A stretch of 50,712 nt of DNA from Chlorokybus atmophyticus (taxonomy: Eukaryota > Plantae > Mesostigma and Chlorokybus algae): the NCBI GenBank assembly GCA_009103225.1, contig RHPI01002503.1, forward strand, positions 381,456-432,167, read 5' to 3'. How positions within the stretch are numbered: the stretch's first letter is position 1; every line of letters begins with the position of its first letter. Below the pieces are notes generated by a model. That model was not told where the DNA came from and did no database searches. It worked only from the letters and a program-made list of their open reading frames with translations. Position numbers and translations under genes: made by a program. Below, one piece after another: positions 2-44,710 of the stretch.

Positions 2-1656
2 CGCTCGCAACGAAGATCGGCTGCAGCAGCCACCTACAGTCTTACAAAAAGCTCACGTGTGCCTCGTGCCCGAACGCAGCCGAGGACAACTGCAACGAGC
101 TCGAGCCCGAGCCTAAACGCTGAAGAGGACTCTCCTACACCGTACGATGAGTCTCAGGAGACTGTCACCAAAGAAGTGGCCTTTCAGGAGCCATCCGAGC
201 GTCGCTGGAGCGCACAAGTAGCAGCACACATGCTGCTGACCAGGCCTCAGCTCACTGCACACTTCCCTGTCTACAAAGACCAGGCTACAGTGCAGGAGCA
301 GTACCACATAGCTACGGGAGTTGTGGAGTTCCACATGTTCCGCCGACAACAAGGCATCACCGTGCTGGAGCTGTTCGGAGGCATAGGCAGTGGGCTTGCG
401 GCTGTCCTCAACACAGGAACAACAGTCACCAAGTACCTCTACTGTGACCCTGACCCTCAGGCACAGGAGGCTCTGAGCCATCATTTACGACAGCTGCACC
501 AGCGCTACCCGCAGCAGATACCACTGTCGGCACTGCAAGGGAGCCAGAAGCTCTACCGCAGGACATCCGCTGAATTACCAAGGATCACCTGCAGGCAGTC
601 GGCAACGTTGACCTGCTGATAGCAGGATGGGAGTGTCAAGGGCACTCCAGGGCAGGCAGAGGCCAAGGGCTCTCTGATCCTCGCTCACAGCTGTTCTGGG
701 AGCTAATGAGAGTCATCAAACTCCTACAGACCAGTCAGATCGCTAGGCCCTTGGGGTACATCATCGAGAATGTGCACTCCGAGGATGACAAGCGGCATCA
801 CGTCGCTAAAGCCTATCGACAAGTATGCTCCTTGCTGGGGCATCCTCTCAAAATCAACGCCGCGCGTCATGGATCTCGCGCACACCGCGTCCGCGCCAAG
901 TGGACCAACCTGGCCATTGTAGAGGACCTGTTTCTGGCAGAATACCTATACAGCAATCGGCCACGAAATCTCGTCGTCGATGACATCCTGGACCCTGGAC
1001 GCACAGCGCAGCCGGTCACACGCCGTGACCGCCACCACTTCTACCAGTGCAACCAGCCTGGTCAGCCGCGCCGCGCACTACCCACGCTTGTATCCTATCC
1101 AGGCTCCTACGCGTTCCGCAATGGAGGCGACGGCATGGTGTTGGACTCCAACACTGGACAGCTGGAAGAACCCAATGCCCGCGAGCGCGAGCGTGCTATG
1201 GGATTCTTTCCAGGCAGCATCACAGGCTCCACGCTGACAACCAGTCAACAGTGTCAGTTGTTAGGGCGCGCCATGGATCAGAACAGCATGGTGTGGTACT
1301 TGGAAATGTGCTTTGCTCTCCAGGACCGCCATGTGTCCTTCCGGAAGCTCGAACACCTGGCTGGGGGGTGGATTGCTCGCTTTTCAGAGACCAAAGCAGC
1401 ACACACCGCCCTCGAGACCGCCCACATGGAGGAGCAGGCAGCAGTCACTGTGGAAGACATTCCAGTGGTCGCCAACGCTACCTCGTGGTCCCACGCCATT
1501 GGACCGCTGGCCACAGGCCAGACTCGAGAGCAACTCGAGGCTCTCCTCAACAAGTGGAGGAGCCAATTCAGTTTCATTGTGAAGGAGCTGGGCATCTGCT
1601 CAGCATACCAGATGGACATTGAACTAGTAAACACCGAACCGGTGTTCAGAAAATAG
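2..1656 (+). pseudogene. Retrotransposon-encoded C5-cytosine DNA methyltransferase domain (DNMT3-like), disrupted
   Basis: Motif I LELFGGIG (365-388), motif IV DLLIAGWECQGHS with catalytic Cys at 634-636, motif VI ENV (766-774), motif VIII HRVRAKW (883-903), motif IX RERERAMGF (1180-1206), motif X LLGRAM (1258-1275), all in canonical order. Frameshift near 545 and in-frame TGA at 571-573. The frame is open from base 2, so it continues upstream of the window. Confidence 0.9.
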
Positions 1657-4621
1657 TACCGCCTCTCCAAGCTAGAAGAAGACTTGGTGGAACAGAGGTG
1701 CAAGGCGCTGCTAGATGCAGGCCTGATCGAGGAGTCCACATCGGACTTTGCGGCCGCGACCGTCATGCCCCTGAAGAAAGATTCAGCAGGCAACTGGACA
1801 CACCAACGCATGTGTGGCGACTATCGCCCCCTCAACAACAAGACCAAGCAGGACAGGTATCCAATGCCTACCGCAGAAGGCATCTTTGACGATGTAGGAG
1901 AATGCACGGTCTTTAGTATCTTGGATATGCGCCAAGGGTACAACCAGATCGCCATCAAGGAGGAGGACAAGCACAAGACTTCCTTTTGGGGAAACCGGCA
2001 GCTGTACCAGTGGAAGGTCATGCCCCTTCGGGCTGAAGAACGCTCCGGCCAAGTTCCAGCGCGTCATGGACAAAGCCCTAAAGAGGTTGGACTTCGCACG
2101 CTGCTACATTGACGACATCCTCATCTTCAGTCACAGCAATAAGGAGCATCTCCAGCACATCGAAGAGGTGCTACAGAGGCTGAAGGAAGTCGGGATGACG
2201 GTGCACCCTGACAAGTGCACCTTCTTCACCCACAAGGTACCCTACCTAGGACACATGATTGTGCCCCATGGTGTGTACGTACAGCAGGCCAAAGTGGAGG
2301 CACTGGTGGCTATCCCTGCCCCCACAGACCTCACGCGGCTGCGGGCCTTCCTCGGCCTTACCAACTATTACCGTCGGTTTGTCAAAGACTTTGCCAAGAT
2401 CGCAAGGCCTCTCAACGAACTACTGAAGAAGGACACCGAGTTCTTGTGGAAGGAGGCACAACAGGAGGCCTTTCAGGAGCTGAAGCTCCGCCTCACCACA
2501 GCTCCCATTCTGCAACGCCCTGACTACACCAGGTCGTTCATCCTGCACACAGACTGGAGCAAGCTCGGCATGGGGGCCGTGCTCGTACAGCATGACAACA
2601 ACAAGAAGGAGCGCGTAGTGTCGTACACCAGCCGCAGCAACAACAGTGCTGAGGCCAACTACAGCAGCTACGAAGGGGAGTGTCTCGCCGCAGTGTGGGC
2701 CATCTCCTTCTTCCGACCCTTTCTGTTTGGACGGCAGTTCCAACTGGTCACTGACCATCAACCCCTCAAGTGGCTAATGAACAACCAGCACTTGACAGGA
2801 AAGTTAGCACGATGGGCGCTGCTGCTCCAGGAGTACGACTTCGAGGTGGAACACCGCGCAGGCCTTGCCAACCAGGATGCGGATGGCCTCAGCCGTAACC
2901 CCCACCTCAGCACCAACGACGCCACAGGTGCCCGACATGAGTTGGGTCCTACAGCTGCACCTTCAGGTGTGGCCACCTTGTTCGCTGTCGCTGCGCTGCG
3001 CTCGGGACGCAGGACTCAGACCGCTGAGGCAGCAGCAGACGGGGACATGCCCGCTCTCGAGCCCGCCATCACCACCACCGATCCTTTATCAGAAGAAGCA
3101 ATCGCTGCCGACCCTGAGGTGGATGATGAGGAGCTGGCACCCACCGACACACGACAAGACATCTGGCTGGACGAGCCATCGCTCGCACTGCTTCAGACTG
3201 GACAACTTCCAGCAGGCATGAGCGCACGCGAGAAGGACCGCGTCCGACAACGCACTCAGCGTTACCGCTGGGCCAACGACAGGCTGTATCGACGGATACA
3301 AGATGCAGATCAGGAGGTCCCCACACCAGCTGCACGTGAAGGCATCATCTCCTCCCTTCACACCGAGCTCGGGCACTTCGGTGTCAAGCGCACGGTCAGC
3401 CTGGTCAGGACCCAGTACTGGTGGTATGGGGTGCACAGACAGGTGCGGGAGTTCGTCAGCAACTGTCAGCAGTGTGACATGGTTCGCGCCAGCCTCAACA
3501 CGCGCAATGCCACCTTGCATCCCCTTCCCATTTCCGGGTTGTTCTACCGCTGGGGACTGGACATCCTCGGAGACCTAGCGCCCTCAGCGCGAGGCAACCG
3601 CTACATCCTCGTCATGATCGAGCACTTCTCCAAGTGGGTGGAGCTGGTGCCCCTGCCCGACAAGAGCAGTGAGGGAGTAGCCCAGGCTTTCCTCTCCCAT
3701 GTACTCGGACGCTTCGGCAGCTGCGCTGAAGTCATCACCGACCAGGGTACGGAGTTCAGAGGAGCCTTCGACAAGCTTATCGACAGATGCTTCATCGACC
3801 ATCGTCGCACCTCACGCGACCACCCGCAGGCCGACGGCCTCGCCGAACGTACCGTGCAGACCATCAAGAAGGCACTGCGCAAGTACGTCCTCGCCTACGA
3901 GAAGAATACCTGGGATGATCACCTCCCATGGGTAGCAATGGGCTACCGGCTGTCCAAGCAGGCAGCCCTGCGAGAGTACAGCCCATACTATCTACTGTTC
4001 GGAAGGCAGCCATTGCTCCCTTTCCGCGCACAGCAGGAGGTCGACAGAGTGGTGGACAATCTCGACAACCCCGACGAGATGTTGTATGATCTGACAGTGC
4101 GCAGTGCGCTGTTCGAACACACAGTCCCCATGGCCTTCAACAACCTGCGCATCGCGCAGCACCGCGACACGCTGCGTTACGAGCGTGTGCGCAGTGGTTT
4201 CTACAAGGAGCGGGAGCGCCGCTTCGAGTCAGGAGACTTCGTCTACCGTATGGCGTCTACACGCGACACCCTCGATACCTCCGTCGGGCGTGCTGTCTAC
4301 AAGGTATTGAAGGTGCACCCCACAGGGGTACTGGACCTGTTGGGACAACGAGGCGAGCGCATGAAGGACAACATGGTCAACTGTGCGCCCTGTCATCTCC
4401 CCTACATTGCTGGCTTCACCAAGATCCAGCACCCGCGTCCGCTGCGCAGCACCCGATGCGAGAAGTGTGGCAGCGCCGACGACGACCCATTGATGATGTT
4501 ATGCGACGGCTGTAATCAAGGCATGCACTGCTACTGCCTTGACCCTCCACTGGACGCAGTACCCTTGTGGGAGTACTGGTGCGATGACTGCCGCATCAAC
4601 GGTCCCCCACACAGTCGGTAG
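1657..4621 (+). pseudogene. pol: reverse transcriptase - RNase H - integrase - PHD finger
   Basis: In frame with the DNMT ORF across TAG 1654-1656 (EPVFRK*YRLS). RT motifs RMCGDYRPLN, LDMRQGYNQI and KVMP/FGLKNAPAKFQR, the last interrupted by an extra C at 2023-2026, then YIDD. RNase H and DDE integrase lie in ORF 2066-4621. Confidence 0.93.
4457..4591 (+). other. PHD finger (C4HC3) at the integrase C-terminus
   Basis: CEKC..MLCDGC..MHCYC..PPL..VP..YWCDDC matches the Cys4-His-Cys3 PHD spacing. Confidence 0.92.
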
Positions 4622-4659
4622 GAACTGAGTTCTGGAGCAGAGGGCTACCCCAGAATCTC

Positions 4660-4667
4660 AGGGGGGG
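4660..4667 (+). promoter_or_regulatory. Polypurine tract (plus-strand primer)
   Basis: AGGGGGGG about 40 nt after the pol stop, directly before TG. Confidence 0.75.
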
Positions 4668-5797
4668 TGGCTTGTTGACTGTGTGCACTACGACACAGTC
4701 TGTACACAAAGGTGGCGAGCAACATCGGCTCGTCCACTGCACTAAACACCGCGTAGGCTCATCTTCAAGCCTATGCCCACGATTGGGGGGTTGTCTTTTG
4801 CTTGCATGGCTCCAATGCAGTGCACGGCACTAGCATGCGTGCAGCACTAGCACTCCTCTGCAGCCTGTCCGAGACAAGGTTGCCCTCGACCATGGCAGGC
4901 ACGACAGCTGTCATGCCATCTACCCTCGCATGCCAGTTCTTCTCAAGCATGCCTACACCCAGCCCCACGCCCGGGCTACCAGCATGAAGACCGCGCGAGC
5001 CCCAGCCTACTGCTAGCTACTGTATCACTCATGTAGCATGTAGCTAGGGCTACTTTATAGACCTGTCTGTAGGGACCGCGCGTAGCTGATCAGTTGTAAG
5101 TCTGTTAAGAACACATGTGCTATATCGAGTCTTAGGAGATTTCCGAAATAGCATGAGGCCTCGATGTGACCGTTGGCCTAGTGCCCGCGTGGCACTGCAC
5201 GGTCATGATTTGACATGTATAAGTAGAAAGTCACGTCACCAGACTGGCTGGTGACACTGTAAGTGAGTACTGTGAGTACTAGGAGTACTAAGAAGTAAAG
5301 ACTCTGTTTCTAAAGAGCTTGTGAAGCTACTTGAACTGGAAGCACGCTGCCCCAGTTGCCAAGAATTCCCTTACTGCGTGAGACACGGTGCATGCTCTTG
5401 TGCGCTGTGCCTGTCATTGCTGTGAGCTTGTCGGTGGTGTGTTGTTTCAGTAGTCAGGGTGTTGTATCCACGTGTTGCACACTCATTCACCTCACTTAAC
5501 AGTGTATCATTCTATCCGCTCATGCAAAGAACTGTGTCTACAGCACTACCTATCGTAGTGGCTTGTTGACTGTGTGCACTACGACACAGTCTGTACACAA
5601 AGGTGGCAAGCGGCATCGGCTCGTCCACTGCACTGAACACCGCGTAGGCTCATCTTCAAGCCTATGCCCACGATTGGGGGGTTGTCTTTTGCCTGCATGA
5701 CTCCGATGCAATGCACGGCACTAGCATGCGTGCAGCACTAGCACTCCTCCGCAGCCTGTCCGAGACAAGGTTGCCCTCGACCATGACAGGCACGACA
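4668..5797 (+). repeat. 239-bp direct repeat, copies 4668-4906 and 5559-5797
   Basis: Manual alignment gives 229/239 identical with no gaps; offset 891 bp. Confidence 0.97.
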
Positions 5798-5821
5798 AGA
5801 TCGTAAATCACGTAAACAACA
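4668..5821 (+). repeat. 3' LTR region (boundaries uncertain)
   Basis: Starts TG right after the PPT (TGGC at 4668 or TGTTG at 4673). TATA-like TATAAGTA near 5217. Candidate ends are CA at 5541-5542, CA at 5796-5797, or CAACA at 5817-5821, which would pair with TGTTG. The 5' LTR is not in the window for confirmation. Confidence 0.6.
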
Positions 5822-7195
5822 GCTGCATATAACAAACTCCAAGTAGGTGGAAAATGTTGTCAAGGCAAGCCAACAAGGAAGCATTCATGCCACATGGGGG
5901 CCAAGGCACAGGTACGCCCGGCCTGCTATAACAAGACATAAGACTAGATAATAGACCACCAAGACCCTCAAGCAGCAATAGGTGGGCGTGTACATCAGCA
6001 AGGGGCAGACGGAGTGCACAAGCACACCTAACCACCACCTGCAGAGTGTAGCGGAGCTGATCGTTGATATGTGCTTGTGTGGTATATTTGACATGTAACT
6101 CACGATGTCCAATATTTTGCTTCTTATGAAAGGCTCTTATAACTGGTTGAGTCAACTCGTTACAGGAGCCTTTAATACCTAGTTGATTAAGAAACGGTTT
6201 TTAACAATACAACAAGATGGTGTACTTTTACGTCAAGCGTATACAAGATGTGTTTGCATGATTGGAATATTAAGCCTTGCAATACTCATCTGAGTTACAC
6301 TTGGACTATGTGACTACACATAGGTATAGGAGTTCCGCATGTAAAGATATTAACTTTGCATTTTATTCATACATCTTAATAAAATATGACATGCGTTTAA
6401 TGTATTGATTGCATGTATGTTGATATAAGTAGACTCTACTGCTATGCATTTATGTATATGTCATTTTTATGCGTTATGTTCAATGCCGACATATTATTGA
6501 ACGAATGAAACAATAATATGTAAGGGTTAATGCCATATTCAATTTATGCCATGCATAAGCAACCAATTTGCTTGAAGAAGTGAATGCATAATAAGTATCA
6601 GTGGCTGACTTATATACAGCTACCAGGTATGTTGCATGCATCACTGGTTGATGCAAGACGCATCAACAATGAACACCGTTGAATCAACAGGTGACATACT
6701 GCAGACTGCTATGCACACATCAGTTCCTTATCTCACTATACACGCCATGTGTCGATGCTTGTAACAGGTCCCTGTGAGTTTGGTTGTAGGGAGATTTCCC
6801 GCCCTGCAACACTGATCGCGAAGCCCGCGGCCAGTGACTGTATTTATCGAGGTGCTCGGCGGAGCACCTGGATACACCTCGCCCTCCTCCTCCTTCTGCA
6901 TGCCGTTGGTCAGCACTGCACAGTGCTCAGGCTAGGCGAAATGGCTGGCATGGCTTGCACCTAATAGCCTACATTGTAACACCACATAGTTTCCTCCGCC
7001 CATCCTGTCAAGCAGCACAGCACAGACAACAGCACGCAACAGGGAATTAAGGAGGAAGTGGAGGAGGAGGAGCAGGTGGTGGTCGTGGACGTGGACGTGG
7101 AGGTGGAGGCGGAGGTGGAGGTGGAGCAGAGCCTCATGTATGGTTAGGGCTTGTAAGTAAGCTTTTTTTACTTTGGCTCAGCTTATTGTCTAGCT

Positions 7196-10100
7196 ATGGC
7201 AGTGCAGCTGCTGCGGCATGGTGCGGGAGGGCGGTGGGAGCTGGGTGAAGAGGCGTTGGCGGCTCTGGAGGCGGCGAGGGGTCCAGCGACGGTGGTGGCC
7301 GTTTGTGGGAGGTCTCGCCAAGGCAAGAGCTACGTGTTGAACCGTCTGCTGGGCCTGGACGGCAAGGCCGGCGGTTTCCGCGTGGGGTCCACGCACCAGG
7401 CTTGCACGCGCGGGCTGTGGCTGTGGCCCCGCGGCGTGAAGGTCCGCGACCACACCGTCTTCGTCCTCGACTCTGAGGGCATTGACGCCTACGACCAGAC
7501 CGCCACCACCTCCGTGCAGATTTTCAGCTATGCCGTCCTACTCTCCTCCCTGTTCGTCTACAACCAGGCAAGACTAGTTTGTCTCTCACTCATACACCTC
7601 TTATCACAAACGTCCGCAGCTTAAGCATGCATAATTGTTATACACCATCTAGTTCGTTGTGCATGCGCCTACCACATCGTTGCACAAGTCCAGCCCCAAC
7701 CGACAATAACACCACGTGTTGGTTACATTATTCCACTTGGCATGCAATGCTGCCGGTTAGCCTTAGCTCATGTCACATTGTCTGCAAAAGGCACGACGTA
7801 GCTGGTTGTTCAGGCTGCCAGCCAAAGATTGCATTAATTGTACACAGTTGTCTCATTAGACCACTGTAGTCACAGCTGATTGCTGACAGCTTAACTTGCA
7901 GAATGCAGTTGAGCATACGCCCCAAACCCTGCTATGCTGCATTGCAGATGGGTGGCATTGACGAAGCCGCTCTTGATCGGCTTGCACTCGTCACCGAGGT
8001 GGCCCGCAGGGTTGGTGCGAAGGCTGGTGCTGGCGACTCGTCTGCACCAACACTGGTCTGGCTGCTGAGAGACTTTTATTTAGAGTTGGCTGCTAATGGG
8101 CGTGCTGTCACCCCCAAACAGTACCTGGAGGAAGCCCTTACAACAGTTCCAGGCCAGGGTTCTGACATTGTGGCCAAGAATCAGGTCAGCTTGCTGCTTT
8201 GTCATCAGTGCCATTAGCTGAGTTGTCATACAGCAATGTGCGTACCCACACACATACACACGCGCATACGCAGGATATGCACACAATCGTTCAGTACTGC
8301 ATGTCATGTCATTTGCGTGCACATTATGCGTGTCGCGACCTTGTCACCTATTGACCAAGGCGCGCGCCGCTGCAACTGATGTTTGTCGTACTTCAGATTC
8401 GAGAGTCTATATGCACACTCTTTCCAGAGCGAGAGTGCTTCGCATTGGTGCGCCCTGTCAACGAGGAGCGCGATCTTCAACAGCTGGAGACTGTTGCAGT
8501 GAGCACTCACTCAACGCATACGTGGTGTGGCTTGCTGCTTGAGTAGTATGCAATGCGTGTGGATTGCACTGTCAATCAGGAATACACTGCTATGACGACC
8601 ATACCCCCATTGCAGCGCTTAGCAACAATGTGGATGGCAAACACTCACCGTGTTTTCCCAGGCAGACAAACTGCGGCCCCAGTTTCGGGAGGGTATGGCG
8701 GCCCTGACCAAGTATGTCATGTCACGCGCAGAACCAAAGCGCGTGCATGGCAGCATTCTCACAGGTCCGGCAATTGCCGGGCTTGCCAGGGCCTTTGCGC
8801 AGGCGCTCAACCAAGGAGCCGTCCCAACAATAGCGACTGCCTGGCAGAGTGTTGCGGAGAGCGAGTGCCGGCGCGCTTGCGATGCTGGGCTGGAAGCGTA
8901 CGATGCCAAGTTCGACAAGAACGTGCCTCCTGAAGTGGAGGCTCTGCGCGATGCACACGATGCTGCACTCGAGGCTGCCGTTGGCATCTTTCGTACAACG
9001 GCTCTTGGCGATCCAGCGACACAGCATGCATTCGAGCAACGCTTGATACAGAGTGCTACTGCTCGCTTCAAGGTCAGTCCACATTGCTCAACTCACAGCT
9101 GTCATTCAATTGAATGTACACAACCATTATACGCATGTTCTCGACAGGACTACAAGGAACGCGTATACGCTGTTGCGGCAGCAAAGACGTCCGATCTGGC
9201 AACTCGATTAGGGGATAAAGTCATGCAGGCAGTCAACAACCCGCAGACCACTGCGGAAGCCATATGCAAGTTGATCGAATCTGTCATTGTCGACTTTCAG
9301 AAAAATGCTGCTGGTCCTGACAAGCTTGAGAGGCTCGCGCAGTTCGCGAGCAAAGGGTAAGCATGGTTGTTCATATGCTCTTTGACTTGAATGCTTACAT
9401 GTTGCTCATGAGACTTGGGTTGGCATTGGTGCAGAGCAGTCCCTGCTTGCATGTCTTGGTTTCAGCGGCGGCTGGCAGCAAGCACGGAGGAGCTGCAGCG
9501 CATGAGTGCAGATATGCACTCAACGCGCCAGGCTGCAGAACGCGCTGCAGCGGAAGCGGCAGCCACACAGAAGGATTTCCAAACGCGCTCAGACGACACT
9601 GTGGCACAGCTGCGGAAGGATTTGGATCATGCGCGAAGTGACTTGCGCGAGCGCGATTCACAGCTCCGCGCCACAAGCACATCTGCTGAAACAGCACGGG
9701 TAAGCTTTGATCTTGTGGTCGCAGCATGTGATATTTCAGACACACCATCGCGAAAATTTATATTGGACACGCTTCTCATTTGCTATGATAGACAACAGCA
9801 GAGAACCGAGTCACAGAGCAGCGAGTGCGTGCAGAACGTGCTGAGGTGCAGCTGGCAACTTCGCATGAACAGCTTTCCGCGTTGCGTAAGGAGCACACGA
9901 CTGCTTCCACCAGGCTCAAGGTAACCAAGCTTTGCCTTCCTGGCAACAGCGTCATAGCAGACTCGTTGTGTGGCTGCTTAGCTTTAGTGTCCAATGCAGG
10001 AAGTCGAAGAGAGTGAACGCCGTCTGCGAGCCGACTGTGAACGTCTGCAGGTATATAGCACAATATGCTTATATCTTGCGGGTATGTGTTTTTTGTTGGT

Positions 10101-11067
10101 CACTGTCACAGGTATTTTCTCACTCTACGTACGCAACAGCGCGCACTGCAAACGGCAGAGTCAACGCTGTCCTCCAGAGCAGGCTTGGATGAGCAACTGG
10201 CAAGGGAACGGCAGTTGCGATCTGCTGCGGAAGCCAAAGCTGCAGAAGCACAGCAGGAGGTAGCACGCCTTGAACAAGACTCCCGACAGGCTCAAGGTCA
10301 ACAACAAACGCTGCAAGGAAGGGTGGCCGATTATGAGACGAAGTTGACGCGGACACAAGCGGCGCTTACCCAAGCAGAGTCATCAGAGCGCCTTTCTGCC
10401 GCGCAGGCTGCAACAGTTGGCTCACAGGCTGCTGCACTTCTCGTGGAGGCAACTACAGCGAAAGAAAACCTTGAGAAAGTACAGGCGGAGGTGGAGAGGT
10501 TACGCAATGAGAATGAGCAACTGAAGAACGACCTTGAACAGGCCAAGGTCTGCATTAGGATTTACTGCACTGTCAGTTGGCTACTGTATGCTGCTGTGTT
10601 GACTCATAGTGCATTGCGTTTTAGGGACGGGAGGAGGAGCGGGAGAAGAAGTTCAACACGCGTATTCAGGAGCTCAGGGCGCCCGCAGAGCTACCAACAG
10701 CATCAACTCCACCCCGCGCAGCCGAAGCCAGTTTTACGCCTGGCAAGCGCCGCCGGTCTCCTTACAGTGACATTACAGTCCCCCAGGTAACAACAATATT
10801 GTACAGCAGAAGCGCAGCCCTATGGGGGTTGCTGGTGTGGAAATAGGTCACTAGTTAACACTGTATGCAACCACAGCTCAAGCAAGAGTTGACGGATGCA
10901 GGCTACGGACATGAAGTTCTCAATCTGGGCAAGGTGCTTATCGGCTGCAACTGCTGTGTCGAGTTGTTGCCTTGGGTTTTTTTCTCATGGGTTGCATTGG
11001 CTTGCAGAAGGCGACCAAGAAAGACTTGTATGCATTGTATGAAAGGTTTATTCGAGAAGACAGATGA
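7196..11067 (+). CDS. Guanylate-binding-protein-like GTPase with long coiled coil (plant GBPL3-type), 12 exons
   Basis: P-loop GRSRQGKS, G3 DSEG, YNQ/MGGIDEAALDRL, LVWLLRDF, LFPERECFALVRP. Exons 7196-7567, 7948-8184, 8397-8498, 8662-9072, 9148-9356, 9435-9699, 9792-9920, 10000-10050, 10140-10547, 10625-10786, 10877-10933, 11008-11067 join in phase. The C-terminus TVPQLKQELT..TKKDLYALYE resembles plant GBPs. Confidence 0.88.
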
Positions 11068-13910: not shown

Positions 13911-15808
13911 NNNNNNNNNNNNNNNNNNNNNNNNNNNNNNNNNNNNNNNNNNNNNNNNNNNNNNNNNNNNNNNNNNNNNNNNNNNNNNNNNNNNNNNNNN
14001 NNNNNNNNNNNNNNNNNNNNNNNNNNNNNNNNNNNNNNNNNNNNNNNNNNNNNNNNNNNNNNNNNNNNNNNNNNNNNNNNNNNNNNNNNNNNNNNNNNNN
14101 NNNNNNNNNNNNNNNNNNNNNNNNNNNNNNNNNNNNNNNNNNNNNNNNNNNNNNNNNNNNNNNNNNNNNNNNNNNNNNNNNNNNNNNNNNNNNNNNNNNN
14201 NNNNNNNNNNNNNNNNNNNNNNNNNNNNNNNNNNNNNNNNNNNNNNNNNNNNNNNNNNNNNNNNNNNNNNNNNNNNNNNNNNNNNNNNNNNNNNNNNNNN
14301 NNNNNNNNNNNNNNNNNNNNNNNNNNNNNNNNNNNNNNNNNNNNNNNNNNNNNNNNNNNNNNNNNNNNNNNNNNNNNNNNNNNNNNNNNNNNNNNNNNNN
14401 NNNNNNNNNNNNNNNNNNNNNNNNNNNNNNNNNNNNNNNNNNNNNNNNNNNNNNNNNNNNNNNNNNNNNNNNNNNNNNNNNNNNNNNNNNNNNNNNNNNN
14501 NNNNNNNNNNNNNNNNNNNNGGGGGGGGCTATACCAGAGGTGTCATCAGGTGGGCTCGCACGAGTTGCGGTGTTCCTATTATCCATATCGGCCCATTTCA
14601 ACACCGTTGATACGCGTGCCTCGGTCCCTCCCCATCCCGTAACCAAACTCCGGCGAGGGTTTGCCTGAAGCTGCTGCTGCTGCGACACCGGCTTCACCTC
14701 TCCTTCCTTTCCCAACTCAGAATTAAAAACCTCTTCGGACCTGCATGCAAGTTTTAACATTGAAAACGTGTAGCCATGCCATTACTTGTGCCCGAAGGGT
14801 GCAGGTTGCATGCATACAACATGCCGTGTGCATGTTCACCTGTCAAACAAGGCCGCTCCCGTGGAGGCCATGAGCTCAGATGTGCGCAGGCGTGAATTGA
14901 CAGCATGCGCGTGAAAGTTGAGCTGGTTTGCCAACAATGACGAAGACGACGAACTGACGCGACCACCCCACAGCTGTGCCGCGGTGCGCTACAACAACAA
15001 TGCATGTTGAGTGTCATTGTTACATGTTGTGTTGTTGTTGCTCACCCGCTCTGTTGCTCACCTTCATGTTGGGAGGCACATTCTGGCGCCCAATCACGCG
15101 GGCAATGTCATTCGCAAAGCTCGTCTGCACCTGTTGCTGCTCTTGACGCTTGTTGTGCTCTACACGGGCAACTTGGCTGCTGGCCTTGGTGTTGGCGAGG
15201 GTGTTGGTGGGGATGTCAACCTTGGTGCTGTAGATGACAGCGAGGGCGTCGTTCTGGCCAACGGTGCTGCCATCATCAACCCTGCGAGCGTTGCGGTAGC
15301 TCCCATCGTCACTGTCGTCCGCCCACACTCTATGCGGCCCTCTGCTCAGCGCTGAGGCGCCTGCACCCAAAACCCTAACCCTCAACCGCAGCCATGACGG
15401 CTACATTGACACTAAGCAGGACCACCGATAGGACCGCCGCCGTGACAACAAGCAAGACGACTTACTTGATGGGTTTGACAAGGAGGACAGACCGGCAATG
15501 CAGCCGCAGAGTGCTAGGAGGGCGAGGGCGTAGAGGGCGGCGCGTAAGCGCACGGCTTTCACAGAGGCGGCGGCGGAGGTGGAGGACGAGAAGAAGGAGG
15601 AGAAGTAGCTGTACTTACGGTCGTGGCGGTCGTCGTCGTCGCTGGCGTCGTTGTTGCGGGTGGCGGCGTCGCCAGCCGTGGCGGATCCGGGCTTGTCGGC
15701 GGCAAGATCCGGGTGCAGCACCGTGAACACCCGGGACGAAGAGGAGAAGGAGGCCGACGGGGAGATCGACCCTCCCCTCGCCGCCCTGCTAGCCCTCACC
15801 GTGGCCAT
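11863..15808 (-). CDS. GT31-family (Fringe / core-1 beta-1,3-galactosyltransferase-like) type II membrane glycosyltransferase, about 10 exons
   Basis: Exons 15808-15466, 15360-15062, 14988-14840, 14740-14535, 13776-13073 (or -13028), 12983-12814, 12734-12514, 12400-12269, 12186-12102, 12040-11863 are phase-consistent. N-terminal TM segment AALYALALLALCGCIAGL. Catalytic-domain motifs KKWYLMAHDDTYL..LYAG, INGGAGIAVS, ADVVMACC, ISWHHVDP. Confidence 0.75.
13875..13910. repeat. (GA)n microsatellite running into an assembly gap
   Basis: Direct reading. Confidence 0.95.
13911..14520. other. Assembly gap (N run), inside a predicted intron of the GT31 gene
   Basis: 610 Ns. Confidence 0.99.
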
Positions 15809-16346
15809 GCCGGCCTAAATCAATGTCTACATCTACTCATCCTCCCTCTACTCATCCTCCTTTGCAAACAGCACACGCAGGGATTTGCACCTGAACAAGT
15901 GAAGCAGTGCCAACGCATACACAAGCCACTTTCACTCTCTGATCCACGTTTATTGCCAAAGCCTATTGCCTAGCTGCTGCCGCCGCCGTTGCTGGCGGTG
16001 TTGCCTGGCGCCAAAGGCATCCACAGATCGCCATCACGTGATCGTTCCGCAACAACCGCGTACTGTAACTCGCAAGTGGAAGACGTCATTCAGTGTGCAA
16101 TGGTGCGACCTGGTTATAGGTCACGAGTGGTTGATCGTTATTACAATCGCAAGCAATTTCTCGCGCTCTCCAACAAAGACCGCAAAGACCACCCAACAGG
16201 TGCAATGTACACGGTATAGGAATCCATGATAACACTATATGCACAAGAAAACACCCACATCATTACCACCTCTAGCCAACTGGGTCTCACGTGAATTTCA
16301 CAACATGAATGCAAGTGCATGAGGATGTACCTCGCCCCTCGCCCCC

Positions 16347-16643
16347 NNNNNNNNNNNNNNNNNNNNNNNNNNNNNNNNNNNNNNNNNNNNNNNNNNNNNN
16401 NNNNNNNNNNNNNNNNNNNNNNNNNNNNNNNNNNNNNNNNNNNNNNNNNNNNNNNNNNNNNNNNNNNNNNNNNNNNNNNNNNNNNNNNNNNNNNNNNNNN
16501 NNNNNNNNNNNNNNNNNNNNNNNNNNNNNNNNNNNNNNNNNNNNNNNNNNNNNNNNNNNNNNNNNNNNNNNNNNNNNNNNNNNNNNNNNNNNNNNNNNNN
16601 NNNNNNNNNNNNNNNNNNNNNNNNNNNNNNNNNNNNNNNNNNN
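16347..16643. other. Assembly gap (N run)
   Basis: 297 Ns. Confidence 0.99.
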
Positions 16644-17041
16644 TCATCATTTCATGTACCTTATCGACATATATACAATTAATGCATTGTATTTCTGTAA
16701 ATGCAAGCTCCCGGGGATGCCGGCTCTACCCTCCGCCCCCCCTTTCATTTAATGAGGGGTGTTGTACGAGGCCTGCAATACGAGTGTAAAAGGGGGTTAC
16801 AAACACCCCCCACCCCATGTCACACGCATGATTCTACATACAAACACCATAATAATCTTTTCTTTATTGCATGCATGAAGTATATAATAAGCAAGACACA
16901 TGTGTGATGACATGCATGGCGAAATGAACAATATCACGCTATGCATGCGTAACTTGTGCGTATTGTGCTGAATGCAATCTGTATAGTAACATTACCGCGT
17001 GACAAAAGCCTATTTTGCTTTTATGTATGCTTCAAAGTCGT

Positions 17042-17445
17042 GAGAGTTTTATGATACATAAAATTGGTGTCAAACTAGTTTAATTGCAACTTACCATAAC
17101 GAAAACATTGGAGGTTTTTCAATATTGTTTTGGGTGGTAAGAGAGATTGTATTAACAAGAGATTGAGATCCATATCGAGGTTAACCTCGCACAAAGCATT
17201 CATTCATATGTGCATACTGTGCTGAATGCAATCCACATCATGTAAACATCATTGCGCAATGAAAAGCGTATGTTGTAAACAAGAGTTTTAATGACGTAAG
17301 GACATTTGTGAGAAACAAATTCGGTATCGAACCAATATGATTGCAACTTACGATCATAAACGCATTGAAGGTTTTTTAACATTGTTTTTTTGTGGTGGGA
17401 AAGGGCTCAATTATAAGAGATTGAGACCTCCATTATAGTTAACCT
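17042..17445. repeat. Diverged AT-rich direct repeat (about 17042-17187 and 17282-17445)
   Basis: Colinear shared blocks AGAGTTTTA, TTGCAACTTAC, CATTG.AGGTTTTT.AA.ATTGTTTT, AAGAGATTGAGA, GTTAACCT. Confidence 0.75.
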
Positions 17446-19006
17446 TGCTCTGTTGAGGCTAACCTCTCAACCTTTTGCTTATTGACATAGGGCTTGTCAA
17501 TGCGCTTGCGGATCAAGGGGGAAGGGGGGGGGGGGGGGGGGGGGGCCTAACCTCAGCCTTTGTGCATCAGGTTTGTAATGCCCCTGCCTGCTGATGCCAG
17601 CTGCCCCGCCTTGCATATCAACNCATGCAGCTGCACATATATTTATTGTTAGAGTTGAAGTATGCTATCAATTATGACATCAAATAAAAGCCCTTCATTT
17701 GCATGCCCCCTCTTTAACATATGATAAGAAACACAGGTTTGTTTACAGCTTTTATTTACTTATAATGAGTCCGCTTAAATGCCATTTGCAAATCATAAAT
17801 GCTCATTGGTTAAAGAATGAGGTAAAAGGGTTCATGTCGAAGCAAAAACACGTGTGGCAACTTGTAGTCACGACCAAGATCGAAAAACGGAATGGTGACA
17901 CATGTGCAAGTTGGCGTTAGTGCACGAGTAATAGCAGCAGTTAACAAGAGCATGAGCAACAATAGCAGCAAAGAGTAGCGATATTTGGTTGATTTCACGA
18001 GCAACATTCATGCGATGCAGATTGACGTAAATGTGCTTTCACTCTTGACAACATGCCCTGCACATGCTAAGTACAAAAAGTAATACGCCATAACAATATC
18101 TCAAGTTAATGGCATTACACTTGACCACATCAAGGCCCGAGCTTGACAAGTGCTCAATTTCCTCCCATCCCCATTAATGTAAGCGAGGGGGGGGGGGGGG
18201 GGNGGGGGACGCTACAAGCATGCTGAGACACCGTTGATGAATGATTCATCCAACTACGCGCAAGCACAGGCAGCAAGGCGGGTCAGCAAACAAAGCACCC
18301 ACATTTGTCATGGTTGTTTTGAGCCTAGGTAAAGCAGCACGGCGCGCTACACATAAGGAATTATATTGTTATTGCATGTATAAACAATGCGAAACGGAAA
18401 TGCATTTGCATAGTGACACGCACAATCAGCAGCATGCAGAATGACATAGCGCATACCATTAATATCATTGTAACACCAAGGTTGACAACCCAATTCACTA
18501 CCTGACACGCTACACTACCCCTACCACCTCGTTAGCCATGTAAGCATGCACATGCATATGCGTGCACATGCACAATGGTCATTGGTTAGTGGCCCAATCT
18601 TCGCCGAGGCAGCAGGCCAAACAGACTCCTCCTCCTCCGCCCTATGTATTGTGCATCACATCCATGTACGTATGTATATAGGCGATTATTCGTTGTGCTA
18701 CCGGCCTTAGATTGACAGCAACACTGATAGTCATATTGGCTGCATTTCCTTGCGCAATGCATGTGGACTGCAAGCATCATGCCTGACTAGAGGCCACTTG
18801 CAGTAGCAATGTGAAATGCCATTGGCTGGTTACTATCCAGACGTGCTATTATGTCGATTGAAATGCAGAACAAGAATTTTGCAAGTCTCGCACGCCGCGC
18901 AACTCTTTAATGCACAATGCACAGTGTAAAATGCAGCATGCACGACTCTTCGCATTAGCAGAACAGCATTCCATGTGATCCTGGATCTCCCAAAGCCTGT
19001 CTACAC

Positions 19007-19924
<918 letters not shown>

Positions 19925-20657: not shown

Positions 20658-23600
20658 ATGGTCACCACCATGCCTTTCGCGGCTGCGGTAGCTGCGCAAG
20701 TGCGCTACCTGCTCAGCAACTGCAGTAAAAAGAATTCCCGGACGGTGGCCACTGAGCTGGCACAGGTAATAGTTGACTTTCTGCATAGATTGCCTGCATG
20801 CATGCATTGCTTCTGCTGTGTGCATGCTGCCTAAATCATTGGCAAGTGTGGAGTCATGTGCAGTCGTGGGTGTCTCATGTTGTGATGTAATCGTTGTGCA
20901 GTTGACAGACCTGTACGGCGTTGAAGGTCATGTCTTAGTGCTGCAAGCGCTTTTGGAACAAGTAGATTTACAAGACCATAAGACGCTCAGTACACAACCG
21001 AAGCTGCAGCTATTGTCTGCAGAGCTGGAGCAGCTTGCTGAGTTGCCGCATGCTGCGGCCATCTTACTCCATGCATTGACAACTGCATCGCTCAACAAAG
21101 ATGGGTTTCTGAAGGATGTGGCAGTCGCTTTAAAGCCAGCTCCAGACCAGCTGCTTGCGCTGGCCGTGGCTATGACGGAAGCCTCTGATCCAGAATTGCG
21201 ACAGCAAGGTGGTTACAGCTACAGTGTGCTTTGTGCAATAGCATTGCATTGCGTTTCTAGTACAATGCTCATTTGCACTGCTGCATGGGGTGCAGGGTTT
21301 GAGTTCTTACATACGGAGGGAGAAGAGCTGATCACAAATCTTACCAAGTCGCTGCCCGAAGACTTTGTGCATAAGCTGTGTTGCACTCTAAAGTCGCAGC
21401 ACTCATCTGGTCAATTCGCGGATTTGATCCCGGCGCGATGGGATCATGAAAAGCGGTGGTCGCTGCGGCCTTTGTTCCTGGATGAGTTGCAAGAAGTGAA
21501 TTGCTTAAGGTGGCTTGCCAATTTGCCATGTCAACCCAGTGCTTTGCCGATCTGGCATGCAATCTGTACACTCCCTGAAGTAAGCCCCCAACTGTTGGCT
21601 AACCTGCTGCATTGTGCAGAGACTTCACAGCAGAAGCCGTGGCGCCATTCGAGCTTGCACACCTTGCAAGTCAGCTGGCGACAAATGTCCGTATGGCTGA
21701 TGTGTTTGAGGAGTTGGGCTACTCCAGTTGCGCAAGCAAGACGCAGTTCCTGGAGGTTGTGGACTCAGCTGGTGGGCTGGTTGTGAACGAGAAAGAAGTA
21801 GCCAGGTTGTTGGGAATGATGGCTCGCACACATACTGGACTGGAAGATTCGCAAGGCGTGCACTTGGCGTTCTGCACAGTGCTCGGCGCACTGGCTGTCA
21901 GCACCGGAGAGACAGGAACACCATCGTCTTGGAATCTGGAGGTCGTCGCATCTGCTCTTCAGCAGTTGGTGCGTTTGTCAATTCTTGTATGGTTCCTCAT
22001 TCTGACACAAGTGAGCTTGTTCATTGGGGCTATGCGTATGTTGCTCATACCACTTATGTGCAGGCCCCCAACTTGAACTGGGTGGATACCATTTGCCATT
22101 TGGACTACGAAGGTTTCTATCTTCCGGATCTGAAGGGTCTTGCTCTCATTGTCAGCATGTTCGAAAAGTGTGCTACGGTACGCAATGCTGCTGGTGGCAT
22201 TTGCGGCAAGTGCGTGTTTATGGGCTGTACATCATGTGGAGACTGACGGAAGCATGGCTCTTCTTTTCAGGAAACGTTTCCAGTGCATGCAGTTTGCGGA
22301 AAGCTATGGAAGAACATTGAGGGCCAACTGTCATTTCTGCAGCAAGCTACTTCTGCTCCACAAGATTCATTCAGCTTTGTCAATGCCCCCAACCGCCAGG
22401 TAGTGTATACTGTATGCAATGCTGTGCATGTGACCGTTTGAGTACTACACATGTATACAGAGTATATCATCAATAAAACATGCGGCGTCTCAGCAGGCTC
22501 CCATTGACGGCCTCGCAGTGAGCAAGTCGCCCATGACTGGCTTTGCAAGTCAACACTGGCTGTCGCTAGACTTGATGCACACACTTGTCCTGATTGCCGA
22601 AGGCCATTATGCTGCAGTCCGCGGTATCTTGGATGTGCCATTGAAGCAGTGCCCAGAGCTATTGCTGACTGGCTTGGCACAATTGAAGGTGCAGACGCTA
22701 TATACTGCTTGTGTTTTTCAGTTTTGCCTGCTGAGTGGACGTTTTATGGACGTTTCAACAAACAACAGTGTTGCCAATGTGCCTCAGCAGTCCAGTCGCA
22801 GGTGACTTATTTACTGTGTGGTCCATGCCCTTGTGTGTGGTGACTTTCAGGAATTTGAGAACAGTGTTCTTTGGAACGAGATGGTTGGAACCCTACTGCC
22901 GGTGTACTTGGCCAATCATCCGAATTCTTCTGTTGTATTGCATCGGGTGTGGCCCATGAACAACTCCCTGGTGTTGCGGGCTATGGTGGACATGCACTCA
23001 AAAGACCCTGGAACTGTCTCTCGCGTTCTTGATGTTGCACAAGACCTCAAGGTGTGCTGGCATAATGTGAGTTTGCATAGGACTGTGCTAAGAAGCTGGC
23101 ATCAGCAAGCTAATCTGTATGTGCTACGCAGGTGCTTCCCACCGTTCTGGACGTTCCGCACTACTCCTTCAGCATTGATGTTGCGGCACTGGCATCTCGA
23201 CGGGAGTACCTGAACTTGGAGAAGTGGTTGAACGACAAGATTGCTGCCCATCGCAGTTCATTTTTCCAGGTTTGAATGCTGTGCTTGTGCGTGCCTTCAA
23301 CTTCAATGTTGCAGTGTGCTCAGCATGCACTGCTGTCGGGTTGCTACAATGTTTCTAAGTATGCTTGTCCGCTTTGCTAAATTACTACTTTAAAAATAAG
23401 CTGATGTGCCTGCTAGGCTTGCCTCAACTTCCTCAACGACAAGATTTCGTCAGACCTGAGGACAGGGGATCAGAGCCTGGACGGGCAGCCAACCGGCAAC
23501 ATGGGTCTCACCGGAAGGAATGCTGGCGTAGTCCTCTCCGTTGAAACTGCTGCTGTGTTCTTCCGGGTGAGATTTTGACTAGTGATGTAAAGGCTCGTGT

Positions 23601-26600
23601 ATGTGCATAGCTGACTAGACATGTAGTGTGGTTATATACCTGAGCAGCAGCTGACAGTCATGCTTTGTGCAGGTGTTACAAAGCAACAGCAATCTGGTGG
23701 ATAGCGACCTGGGTGATGAGGTGCGACGCCTGTTTGCTGTCGCTGTGCAGGCAATGCCTCGACTGCCATCAGTGACATCAGAACAGGTGTGTGCTCCACC
23801 GGAGTTGCAATTCGTGTCATGGGTGTAGCAGGTGCCCTGTGGCACTCATATTTGCATTGCAGTTTCTAGTATTCTGAGTTTGATGTTGGCGCTCTCTTGT
23901 AGCCGGCTGCAGAGGCATTCGCAAGTGACGTTGAAGAGGAGGCAAACTCGTATTTTCAAAAAATTTATACATCTCAGCAGTCAATTGAGGATGTGCTTCA
24001 AATGCTGAAGGGCTTCAAGAGCTCCAGCCAGCAGAGGTATTATTTGCATGTGCAGTTGCTCCATGTCGTTGTTGCCATTGGTGGGTTATGACTTCATTAG
24101 GCTGATGCTGCTTTATTGCTGCAGAGAGCAAGATATCTTTGCCTGCATGATTCACAATCTGTTTGATGAGTATCGATTTTTCCCCAAGTACCCAGACAAG
24201 GAACTTCGCATCACAGCCATTTTGTTTGGTGAGTGATTTGGCTCGTTTTGCAGCATGTCAACTTGCATATATTTGTGCGCTTGCATGTTGGTTGTAAGGT
24301 TCACAACCACAGTTGCAACACGCCGCATGCTTAGCCTCTTGCTATGTATTTGCAGGCTCTCTTATTCAGCATCAGCTGGTGTCTTCCATCACGTTAGGCA
24401 TAGCGCTGCGTTATGTGTTAGACGCGCTGCGGAAGCCTCTGCAGACAAAGGTTGTTGTGAGGCTGGGCTGTAGTGTTATCCTACTTCAGTTTTGCTCACT
24501 TGAGGACGCGTGGTGTGCAGATGTTTATGTTTGGTCTCGTGGCTTTGGAGCAGTTCAAGGCCAGACTGGCAGAGTGGCCGCAGTATTGCTCACACATTTT
24601 GCAGATCCAGCACATGAGGCAGGCTCACCCAGAAATGATTGCCGCAATTGAGCGGCTCCTGCACCCTGCATCACAGTCAGCTGCCCCGCCAGCGCCATCT
24701 GCACTTCCAGAGTCACTGCAGTACCCACAGGCAGGGCTAGCAGCTGGAGTCATGGGGTCAGAACTCTTCGAGTTGCCTGCACAAGACTCTGCAGAGCCCA
24801 GGACGGTTGCTGCTGCAGCAGAGCGGGCTACAGGGGTAAGTTGCAGGATTCAAGGTTGTTTTGGCAGTTGCTATCATGCTGTTTGTTACTTTGTTGCAAG
24901 TCCGTTCACGAGCACATATTCACTCACTGTTGTGCAGGGAGAAGGTCAACAACACGTTGACACCTCAACACCTGGAGGCGGTGATCACAAAGCACCCGCC
25001 CAAGCAGAGCCTGCCCAGTCAGCAGCTCCTCAGCAAGCAGTGCCCACTCCGGCATCTGCTGTCCCTCCACGGACTCCAGAGCGCATATTCCCTCGCGAGC
25101 CACCCAAGGTAATCCATTCTTATCCAGAGTTCATGTGCTGCTACTCGATGTGTGCTAATTGGTTGTGTTACTCAGACACCGGAGCGAACAGTGTCGGGCA
25201 GTTTTTATAATGCTGCTTCTCCTGCCAGGCCTTCATCAGGTCAGCACGCATTGATACCACATCTTATGCATTTGCAACTGCTGCATTGCGGAAAGCCTGT
25301 GACGTGTGCAGCAAGTTGTAGTCACAGCTTGCTCATGTTGTACCTGTTGGTTCAACTGCGTGATAAACAGGTGTGCTTCCGAATAGTCTCCAGCCCCCTC
25401 CAGCTCCTTCTTTTGCGACAGCTTTGAATATAGATACGCTGATTACAGCTGTGGACCGGCTGGAGGACATGAAGGTAGGCCACTCAGGTTGTATGTTACG
25501 GGGCAATTGTTACCTGTGAGTGGTCAATGTCAGACCATCAACGCGCTTTGTCTGCTATGTCTGCAGGTTCCTTCAGAGGGTGTTCAGGACAAGTTACACT
25601 TTCTTATCAACAACATATCAGCAGCCAATTTGGACGTCAAAGCGCAGGAGCTCCTTTTGATGATTAATCCGGACTATACTAACTGGTTTGCCCAGTATAT
25701 GGTGGTTAAGCGGGCGAGCATTGAGCCCAACTTCCACGAGCTTTACATCAGTGTATTGGACAAGTTGAATGCGAAGAACGTACACCAGGAAGTATTGAAA
25801 GCAACTCATGAAAACGTCCGTGTTCTGCTGTTGTCAGAGAAGATCAAGTCTAGCTCATCAGAGAGGTCCTTGCTAAAAAATCTTGGGAGCTGGCTTGGTC
25901 GCTTGACCATTGGCCGCAACAAGCCACTACTCCAAAAAGATTTGAATCCCAAGGCTCTGATTACGGAGGCCTATGAGAAGGGCCGCATGATTGCGGTAAT
26001 TCCCTTTGTTTCCAAGGTGCTGGAGTCATGCAAGAACAGCAAGATCTTTAGACCACCAAACCCTTGGGTGATGGCAGTAATATCTTTACTGGCGGAGATT
26101 TATGCAGTCCCCGAGTTGAAGTTGAACTTGAAATTTGAGATTGAAGTGCTCTGCAAACACCTGTCCCTTGAGATATCGGACATATCTCCATCTCAACTTC
26201 TCGTTGGGCGCTCTCGTGAACAGTTTGGCAATCCAGACTTTAACCCAAGCAGAGCAACACCAGCTGCTGCTGATCAGCCAGCTGCCGTTGTCTCACCTCT
26301 TATTGCACCAACACCACCCCCAGCAACTCCTCCAGCCATTGAGTATGCAGCACCTCCCGCACCTGCCACACCTGCAGCTTCCACAATTACTAGCGCACCT
26401 TCCATGCCTAGTCCCCTTGTTGCCAACATCAGCACAGCTGAGAGTACAGAGGACTTGGTCTTGGCTCCGACACCACCTGCACCCACAGATGCAGCTGGTC
26501 CCAGCATTACAGGACCTGTTGGCGCTTTTGCTGCCAGTGCAGCCAACACAGCCAATACATATCCTGATCAAACTCTTATCCCTAACTTGAGGGCGTATGT

Positions 26601-29600: not shown

Positions 29601-31202
29601 TGCACTGCAATCATTGTTTGCTGATCATTGCCTATCGGCAGCTTTGCTTGGTTGGAGCTTGTGTCGCATCGACTCTTCATGCCGAAGCTGTTGATGGCAC
29701 ATTCTCAAAAGGGATGGCCACTTTTCCAGCGACTTCTAGTGGCGCTGTTTAAGTTCATGGAGCCCTATCTGCGCAATGCTGAGCTCAACTTGCCGGTACA
29801 CAACCACCGTTTGCCCTGCGCAATGACTTTCATGCATGGTCGTCCATTCATAATGTGCTCACTCTTGATGTTGTAGGTCCGCTTGCTCTACAAGGGAACT
29901 TTGCGGGTGCTGCTTGTTTTGCTGCACGACTTTCCAGAGTTCCTATGCGATAATCACTTCAACCTTTGCGATGTCATCCCGCCCACGTGCATCCAGCTTC
30001 GCAACCTTATCTTGTCTGCATTCCCTCGCAACATGCGACTGCCAGACCCATTCACGCCCAACCTAAAGGTTGCGAGTCAGCTCTTGCATGGGTCCCCAAC
30101 CTTATCTCATCACCTGTGCTTATCTTGCGCCACTTGCATCAGGTTGACCTGCTGCCCGAGATCAGCCAGTCTCCTCGCATACTGTCTGATGTTGAGCATG
30201 TGCTGAGAAACAAGCAGTTGAAAGGGGATCTTGACCAGTACCTAAAGGTGTGCCAATTATGTATGCCATGACGGTTGCATGATGTTGATCGGCTGCTGTC
30301 TCATGACAGCTAAGCATTGTTGTTGCAGGCCCGGCAGCCAGTTGCATTCATTGTTGATTTACGCCAGCGGCTGCTACTGCTTCCGCAAGATGCTATGACA
30401 CTTGGCACCCGATACGATGTCCCGCTTATCAACGCCCTTGTGCTCTATGTCGGCATTCAGGTATATGTGGCATGGCGTCCGAAGTTGTGTGTTGTGTCCA
30501 TGCGCTTTTGCTGAATTGATGGTTGTTTTGCAGGCAATTCAACAGTTGCAGAGCAAGTCACCACAGGCTGCTGCACCGATCACACATAGTGCCCCGATGG
30601 ATGTGTTTCAGCGTCTGGTCAGTGAGCTTGACTCAGAGGGCAGGTATTTCGTACTGAATGCCATTGCCAACCAGCTGCGGTATCCCAACAACCATACGCA
30701 CTACTTCTCGTGCGTCCTTCTCTACCTCTTTGCTGAAGCGCATCAGGTACTTGACTGTGTGGCATTAACATGGGGGGGGGAGGGGGGGGGAGAATGTTGA
30801 CTGGTTGCCTGCCCTGTACCCGTGGGAGGTCATAATTATCTTTTTTTGCAGGAGGTGGTGCAAGAGCAAATCACGCGGGTGCTGCTTGAGCGCCTGATTG
30901 TAAACAGGCCCCACCCATGGGGCTTGTTGATTACCTTTATTGAGTTAATTAAGGTATGTGGTAGATATTTGCGCTAGTAACTAAAAGTTGGGAATAAACT
31001 GTGGAGCTTGCTTTCCGCTTGACTCATTGTGTTCCTGTTCCAGAACCCCCGCTACAATTTCTGGAGCCACAGGTTTACCCGCTGTGCCCCAGAAATAGAA
31101 AGGTTGTTTGAGTCTGTTGCGAGGTCGTGCATGGGGCCTCCGCCAAAGGTAGCTGATGACGACCTCAACCAAGGCCCACCAGTTAACGAAGTCAAGGCCT
31201 AA
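20658..31202 (+). CDS. NOT1: CCR4-NOT complex scaffold subunit 1, multi-exon
   Basis: N-terminus [15 protein letters not shown] (ATG at 20658 or 20670), [14 protein letters not shown], large exon 25567-27940 ([29 protein letters not shown]-like [13 protein letters not shown]), C-terminal [22 protein letters not shown], and last exon [22 protein letters not shown] with stop TAA at 31200-31202. Not every internal exon boundary was traced. Confidence 0.95.
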
Positions 31203-44318: not shown

Positions 44319-44710
44319 GGATGCAGAGATTGTGGCATGTATAACAATGTGAGGCATGCATTGCACACCACACACAACAGCACACAACACTTACATTCAC
44401 CACCGGGTGCTCTTCCTACTTACTACCTACCTAACTTCACTACTAGCCCAAACCCCGTTAGACAAGCATGCATGCACGCGCGGATGCACGCGGCACGCGC
44501 GGATGCATGCACGCGCGGATGCACGCGCGGTTAGACAAGCATGCATGCGCGCGCGGATGCAGAGATTGTGGCATGTATCACAATGTGAGGCATGCACACC
44601 ACACACAACAGCACACAACACTTACATTCACCACCGGGTGCTCTTCCTACATACTACCTACCTAACTTCACTACTAGCCCAAACCGTTAGACAAGCATGC
44701 ATGCACGCGC
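44319..44710. repeat. Tandem duplication, period about 236 bp, with internal ATGCACGCGCGG microrepeats
   Basis: 44319-44481 and 44555-44710 are near-identical (GGATGCAGAGATTGTGGCATG...GTTAGACAAGCATGCATGCACGCGC). Confidence 0.93.

Follow-up and report, generated by a model that had tools for sequence, protein, structure and literature searches.

The window analysed here, 50,712 nt of contig RHPI01002503.1 from the alga Chlorokybus atmophyticus, leads us to ask what a DNA cytosine methyltransferase (DNMT) is doing inside the pol gene of a Gypsy retrotransposon, and whether it belongs there at all. Our joint reading, to which we assign a probability of roughly 0.8, is that the element is a decayed Chlorokybus Gypsy retrotransposon with a DNMT3-like domain likely methylating its own cDNA, and that it moved by the replication cycle proposed below. 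The order of the pol parts in the window is DNMT-RT-RH-INT-PHD, and the DNMT3-like C5-methyltransferase domain is placed between the protease (PR) and the reverse transcriptase (RT) (table 1). The Gypsy set of PR, RT, RNase H (RH) and DDE integrase (INT) is found in order, and the best PDB match of the relative P0002 is Ty3 Gag-Pol.

Table 1. Parts of the element in the window, in window positions
Feature	Position	Strand	Remarks
Upstream pol linker	2-352	+	ORF 2-619 is 5'-open at the window edge; gag and protease outside the window
DNMT N-part, motifs I-II, frame 2	353-549	+	ends at the frameshift near 549
DNMT3-like catalytic core, motifs IV-X, frame 1	574-1329	+	PF00145 E 1.5e-9; AlphaFold model pLDDT 82.5
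DNMT-RT linker	1330-1656	+	closes with premature TAG 1654-1656; one ORF here in relatives
Reverse transcriptase, YIDD 2105-2116	1657-2275	+	PF00078 on both pieces; frameshift near 2023
RNase H	2450-2839	+	PF17917 E 1.7e-36
Integrase, HHCC zinc finger and DDE core	3326-3823	+	PF17921, PF00665
C-terminal PHD finger	4457-4591	+	PF00628 E 8.3e-7; ORF stop at 4621
G-rich polypurine tract (PPT)	4660-4667	+	directly 5' of repeat B1
Repeat B1, 240 nt, ends CACGACA	4667-4906	+	96% identity to B2
Palindromic end-to-end junction ACGACA-GC-TGTCATG, B1/A2	4901-4915	+	motif also in relatives, both architectures
Repeat A2	4909-5557	+	TATA-like site 5218; predicted self-primer 5250-5264; A1 copy outside the window
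Repeat B2, right element end (CACGACA)	5558-5797	+	96% identical to B1
Predicted 4-bp target duplication	5798-5801	+	predicted from 4-bp duplications in relatives

Three-frame translation places all the core C5-methyltransferase motifs claimed in the original prediction in canonical order and at the positions given there: motif I (LELFGGIG, 365-388) in frame 2 and, in frame 1, motif IV (AGWECQ, catalytic Cys at 634-636), motif VI (ENV, 766-774), motif VIII (HRVR, 883-894), motif IX and motif X (LLGRAM, 1258-1275). The identity of the domain is borne out by Pfam, where PF00145 matches over 574-1653 with 38.2 bits, above the cut-off of 22; the piece with motif I alone (2-616) gives no Pfam match. 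The domain had also been called DNMT3-like rather than DRM-like, which agrees with two rankings. A 15-row profile puts human DNMT3A first among PDB entries with 90 bits, followed by DNMT3C/B at 85 and 80, the best DRM-type protein at 48.5 and HaeIII at 42, and Foldseek finds DNMT3A/B as the best structural matches of the AlphaFold model, with TM-scores of only about 0.45 and HhaI close behind. On profile and fold similarity the domain would be classed as Dnmt3-related, and neither as DRM nor as bacterial.

Among 49 relatives, EN and the first Arg of HRxR are present in every one and the catalytic Cys in 46, the other three being gaps; in a larger set of 203 domains ENx is found in 186, HRxR in 188 and the Cys pattern of motif IV in 186. 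The canonical PC of motif IV occurs in 93 of these 203 domains and EC, the form of the window, in 85. The dN/dS ratio on the DNMT is 0.10-0.16 in 5 of 11 locus pairs with unsaturated dS, and 16 of the 20 listed differences from a sibling contig of the same genome fall on third codon positions. These values point to purifying selection on the DNMT, whose residues are kept across the family, and with the catalytic residues conserved C5-methyltransferase activity is predicted.

The copy in the window has three lesions: two frameshifts, near 549 and 2023, and the TAG at 1654-1656. The claim that motifs IV-X are in frame with the start of RT holds in that frame 1 is common to both, but the stop intervenes in this copy and the last frameshift breaks RT; similarly, the DNMT does lie upstream of RT in pol, but 'directly upstream' was loosely worded, as about 108 codons separate motif X from the stop. 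In the contigs of four sequencing runs (X1-X4), the frameshift near 549 is absent from all covering sibling contigs (two of X1, one of X2), and that near 2023 is absent from contigs in all four runs, which in X1 and X2 account for part of the depth. The region of the stop is open in relatives, where it belongs to a single ORF; the copy-specific status of the stop rests on these relatives and one divergent loose end, and the right region for reading the residue at its position was recovered in only two of nine relatives (P0181 and P0029). Since siblings or relatives lack these lesions, the decay belongs to the window copy, and the family state is a DNMT fused to RT. Judged from its sequence, the element is a dead, broken retrotransposon copy. 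In motif VII an Asn replaces the Asp that all 49 relatives have, and this may be a further lesion. Over 523-5354, 19 of the 25 listed positions at which the window differs from the covering sibling contigs show A or T in the window and G or C in the contigs, an excess as expected from cytosine deamination, with CpG and other contexts mixed.

How far does the family extend? Word-index protein searches matched 44 long and 56 short proteins; the named ones include Marchantia, Calypogeia and Closterium, one short match is labelled as a bacterial MAG, and most are nameless, with no Klebsormidium-named protein among these matches. A HMMER scan found 171 clusters (50% identity) at E<=1e-30 and 516 at 1e-10. 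Complete polyproteins of relatives have the order (zinc knuckle)-protease-DNMT-RT-RH-INT-(PHD), and in P0178, P0180 and P0181 PR-DNMT-RT-RH-INT(-PHD) forms one intact ORF in which the C5-DNMT is intronless and has its motifs in canonical order. The view that the DNMT is built into pol and is not a one-off insertion is upheld by such relatives, where it is a genuine in-frame part, and the intact natural copies are candidates for Gypsy-DNMT activity. Seven Marchantia gene models annotated as 'hypothetical' (P0014, P0020, P0025, P0029, P0030, P0032 and P0038) are gag-protease-DNMT parts of this Gypsy-DNMT3 family, and carry the risk of being taken for DNMT genes of the host.

Scenedesmus pol proteins belong to a second architecture, RT-RH-DNMT-INT-PHD, which outnumbers the first in the 150 best representatives. 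Members of this sister lineage, whose DNMT follows RNase H and precedes integrase (L029, L032, L036, L039, L042, L072 and P0255/P0384), have a higher GC content. A quick RT tree of 49 proteins with both domains plus the window splits the two architectures with an SH-aLRT of 100; the DNMT tree, made with FastTree on a long-branch phage outgroup and without host DNMT3, DRM or DNMT1 sequences, gives the same split with supports of only 82 and 91. The agreement of the trees fits long co-inheritance, during which either the domain would have moved once or one DNMT lineage would have been captured twice. Gypsy-DNMT3 elements, reported from Klebsormidium, are in this way found in Chlorokybus, Closterium and liverworts as well, and their sister lineage occurs in a chlorophyte. 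They have the look of an old family of the green lineage and not, as originally proposed, of a capture made in the lineage of K. nitens.

The 3' end of the element reads B-A-B (G-rich tract, B1, A2, B2) and corresponds to the 3' half of an A-coding-B-A-B layout, which is present in full in the metagenome loci L045 and L063. B ends with CACGACA, A begins with TGTCATG, and B1 and A2 meet as a palindrome with a 2-nt GC spacer. In the window and 80 loci the junction motif has 13 matches, against 2.2 expected from shuffles, and 11 of the 13 are at the 3' end of an element, in both architectures. L048 has the motif too. Only nine of the 24 loci with a mapped PHD have the junction; among the other 15, three contigs end within 400 nt, five end in B alone and seven show none clearly. 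Copies ending with B alone were noted at seven loci. In the sister lineage, the same palindrome is carried by L032, L036 and L076. Duplications of 4 bp border the outer ends in four of the five loci with both ends (L011, L045, L050 and L063), and in the fifth, L016, the duplication matches at three of four positions. At 12 5' ends, which come from one family and in part from loci sharing an insertion, A is never followed by B.

This anatomy sets the element apart from several familiar classes. Two full identical LTRs, as in a canonical LTR retrotransposon, are absent, the 5' repeat in relatives being A only, and the PPT precedes B instead of a TG, which comes after the junction. DIRS/Ngaro was rejected on the part inside the window, where the scan found an rve (DDE) integrase, together with 4-bp duplications, instead of a tyrosine recombinase. 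Troyka elements, as far as the available text describes them, have CG...CG ends and 3-bp duplications, as against TG...CA and 4 bp here (PMC12440569). With this end anatomy such elements would escape LTR-finding tools, and it provides a testable model for DIRS-like repeats in a retroelement with a DDE integrase.

Both the repeats and the methyltransferase could in principle be accidents of this locus. A solo LTR or a second element inserted at an ordinary LTR end, or an assembly artefact, might imitate B-A-B, and it is true that some relatives end in B alone and that L002 and L048 resemble collapsed assemblies. However, the spacer is a conserved 2-nt GC and not a variable 4-bp duplication, the duplications flank the outer ends, the layout is found in unrelated families, and it is also reported for K. 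nitens in the accessible text of PMC5890265; an accidental origin is largely refuted and very improbable. Even less credence can be given to a host DNMT3 retrocopy or a bacterial methylase that landed once in this element. Such a landing would suit the window copy, with its frameshifted DNMT and a stop before RT, and phage methylase clusters make up two of three Atlas rows among the matches listed, but it is refuted by the intact single-ORF relatives and opposed by the 171 clusters and by RT and DNMT trees that split the same two architectures. In addition, the phage matches are confined to residues 1-74, and viral contigs (30 loci) gave only these short matches to phage methylases.

No tRNA-type primer site was found after A1. 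The sequence that follows A1 complements a stretch inside A, about 30 nt past the TATA-like box where one is seen. The complement is 17 nt long in L044, L045 and L056 (0/100 shuffles for the L045 type), 16 nt in L002 and 17 nt in L048 (0/100 shuffles each), and 11-12 nt in L063 and L032 (2/100 and 1/100 shuffles); in two of the nine loci, L005 (6/100) and L036 (13/100), it is weak. In the window, 5250-5264, which lies 32 nt past the TATA at 5218, complements the sibling loose end behind 5571 at 14 of 15 positions, the site being read from this one loose end in four contigs of run X2, as the element's own 5' end is outside the window. The primer sequence differs in each of four unrelated families, an argument for function. 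A short inverted repeat over the predicted transcription start and self-primer is present in three families (window 5230-5257, L045 A and L002 A), with the possible effect of masking the primer's 3' copy.

From these signals the following cycle can be proposed. Transcription would begin in repeat A some 30 nt downstream of the TATA box, and quite probably the first 11-15 nt of the RNA would prime the minus strand on the complementary site just past the 5' repeat, a self-priming for which Tf1/Tj1 give a precedent (PMC4600332). The cDNA would thereby terminate on the right where A ends and on the left, through the PPT, where B begins, and a plus strand begun at the PPT before B would result in linear DNA with B-GC-A at each end. 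The ends of such a linear cDNA would be without TG/CA integrase sites, which would lie inside the repeats. It is rather more probable than its opposite that the ends are then joined and that the integrase opens the internal CA-GC-TG, so that A-internal-B-GC-A-B is integrated; the foamy virus integrase, which cuts palindromic circle junctions, is a precedent (PMC1180852). The junction next to the primer site would be opened by staggered cuts after CA, and the genomic form would have the same content. Copies with B alone would fit a one-repeat circle or B-B recombination. Against a circle stands the fact that the other junction is never the cut one, as the 12 5' ends show.

There is some room for a different origin of the repeats, in which RT jumps templates over a short terminal redundancy, a free circle never forms and the integrase still cuts the internal junction. 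In its favour, the sibling loose end departs at 5571, from which an overlap of 11-14 nt between the 5' repeat and the start of B follows, but the overlap of the L045 type is at most about 1 nt, and we regard the jump as unlikely. If the ends are joined as proposed, the DNMT in the polyprotein would travel with RT and integrase and would meet a double-stranded intermediate. Methylation in cis is, we infer, the simplest use of a packaged DNMT, and the odds seem about even that it methylates the intermediate, as protection or to pre-silence it, with the PHD finger as reader of the target chromatin. Methylation of the cDNA in cis was already proposed by de Mendoza et al. 2018 (PMC5890265). The original prediction had credited such enzymes with de novo CG methylation; by the available text of that report this was shown for the Symbiodinium DIRS enzymes and not for the Gypsy one. 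The K. nitens domain gave no methylation in yeast, an outcome that its authors did not take as decisive. This negative result, the frequent change from PC to EC, the PHD finger within the same polyprotein and the lack of CpG depletion in the element would suit a DNMT that is kept as a DNA-binding or chromatin module, or that acts on host DNA in trans, with its own cDNA not the target. In the window, no depletion relative to the host flanks was found (CpG o/e of 0.72-0.78 in the element vs 0.71-0.73 in flanking host DNA). On the other hand, Cys, EN and HRxR are conserved in both RT lineages, and human DNMT3B likewise failed in that yeast assay (PMC5890265), and such a role seems to us somewhat unlikely, if less so than the template jump. 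Taking cis methylation and end joining together, we tentatively suggest, with odds a little under even, a PHD-bearing, Gypsy-like clade across the green lineage with a permuted LTR, self-priming and an integrase that opens a stored CA-GC-TG, whose DNMT3, in two Pol positions that pre-date the RT split, would methylate the end-joined intermediate. If true, this would be a parallel to the capture of methylases by circle-forming DIRS elements, and a route unlike that of ordinary LTR elements.

Compared by published description, the element would belong to the Gypsy-DNMT3 (KnitGypsy-Dnmt3) type on every feature tested, including the DIRS-like B-A-B 3' repeats, and this kind of element is therefore already known. 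In the available text of PMC5890265, KnitGypsy-Dnmt3 has an intronless Dnmt3-like domain in a Gypsy Pol ORF, a streptophyte alga as host, DIRS-like repeats, conserved catalytic residues and purifying selection; its host is Klebsormidium nitens and not Chlorokybus, and that text gives no domain position, PHD, junction, target duplications, self-priming or replication model. SymbioDIRS-Dnmt3 of Symbiodinium, described in the same source, likewise has Dnmt3 in Pol, the A-coding-B-A-B layout and no CpG depletion, but differs in its DIRS RT and tyrosine recombinase, and its activity was shown in yeast (PMC5890265). EpiLTRs/DAM-LTRs are also LTR retroelements with a methyltransferase and a chromatin reader; according to the text seen, theirs are DNMT4-related, with DAM and a chromodomain, and represent a separate acquisition, and streptophyte Gypsy-DNMT3 is mentioned there (bioRxiv 10.64898/2026.05.21.726589). 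Gypsy-7a_cRei of Chlamydomonas shares a Gypsy polyprotein with a PHD finger, and the final 8 bp of its right LTR, which resemble a very short B, are missing from the left one; it is mobile in Chlamydomonas lab strains, but no DNMT is listed for it in the part available (PMC9940879). Tf1/Tj1 likewise take the primer from the element's own RNA (PMC4600332, PMC6317226), and the foamy virus integrase cuts a palindromic 2-LTR end-to-end junction (PMC1180852), as proposed here; by the passages available, both have two ordinary full LTRs, whereas the present element keeps the junction as a permanent internal feature. No published description of the CA-GC-TG junction, or of the family beyond K. nitens, was found in the available texts, which include PMC12344493, PMC6317226, 10.1101/363937, PMC8557442 and PMC9940879. 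A search for a published Chlorokybus DNMT3 retrotransposon, with Repbase, theses and subscription journals outside its scope, found none.

The rest of the window contains host genes and some minor repeats. A protein match identifies the gene of CCR4-NOT subunit 1 at 20773-30800, with a NOT1 exon at 25387-28011 that shows 100% identity to a protein labelled jgi/Chlat1 and has Mesvir1 as its next match. Chlat1 stands for Chlorokybus atmophyticus, a streptophyte alga that diverged early. From motifs, we take 7157-10800 to be a guanylate-binding-protein-like gene and 19316-19804 a ribosomal protein L23-like gene, and 32009-37837 is presumably a BTAF1/Mot1-like SNF2 helicase gene. The region 14000-18000 is AT-rich, with a GC content of 0.27-0.40 in three of its four 1-kb bins, and contains assembly gaps. 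A degenerate repeat with a spacing of 254-257 nt is located at 16955-17448, and a tandem duplication of about 160 nt (94%, spacing 231-236 nt) at 44319-44710.
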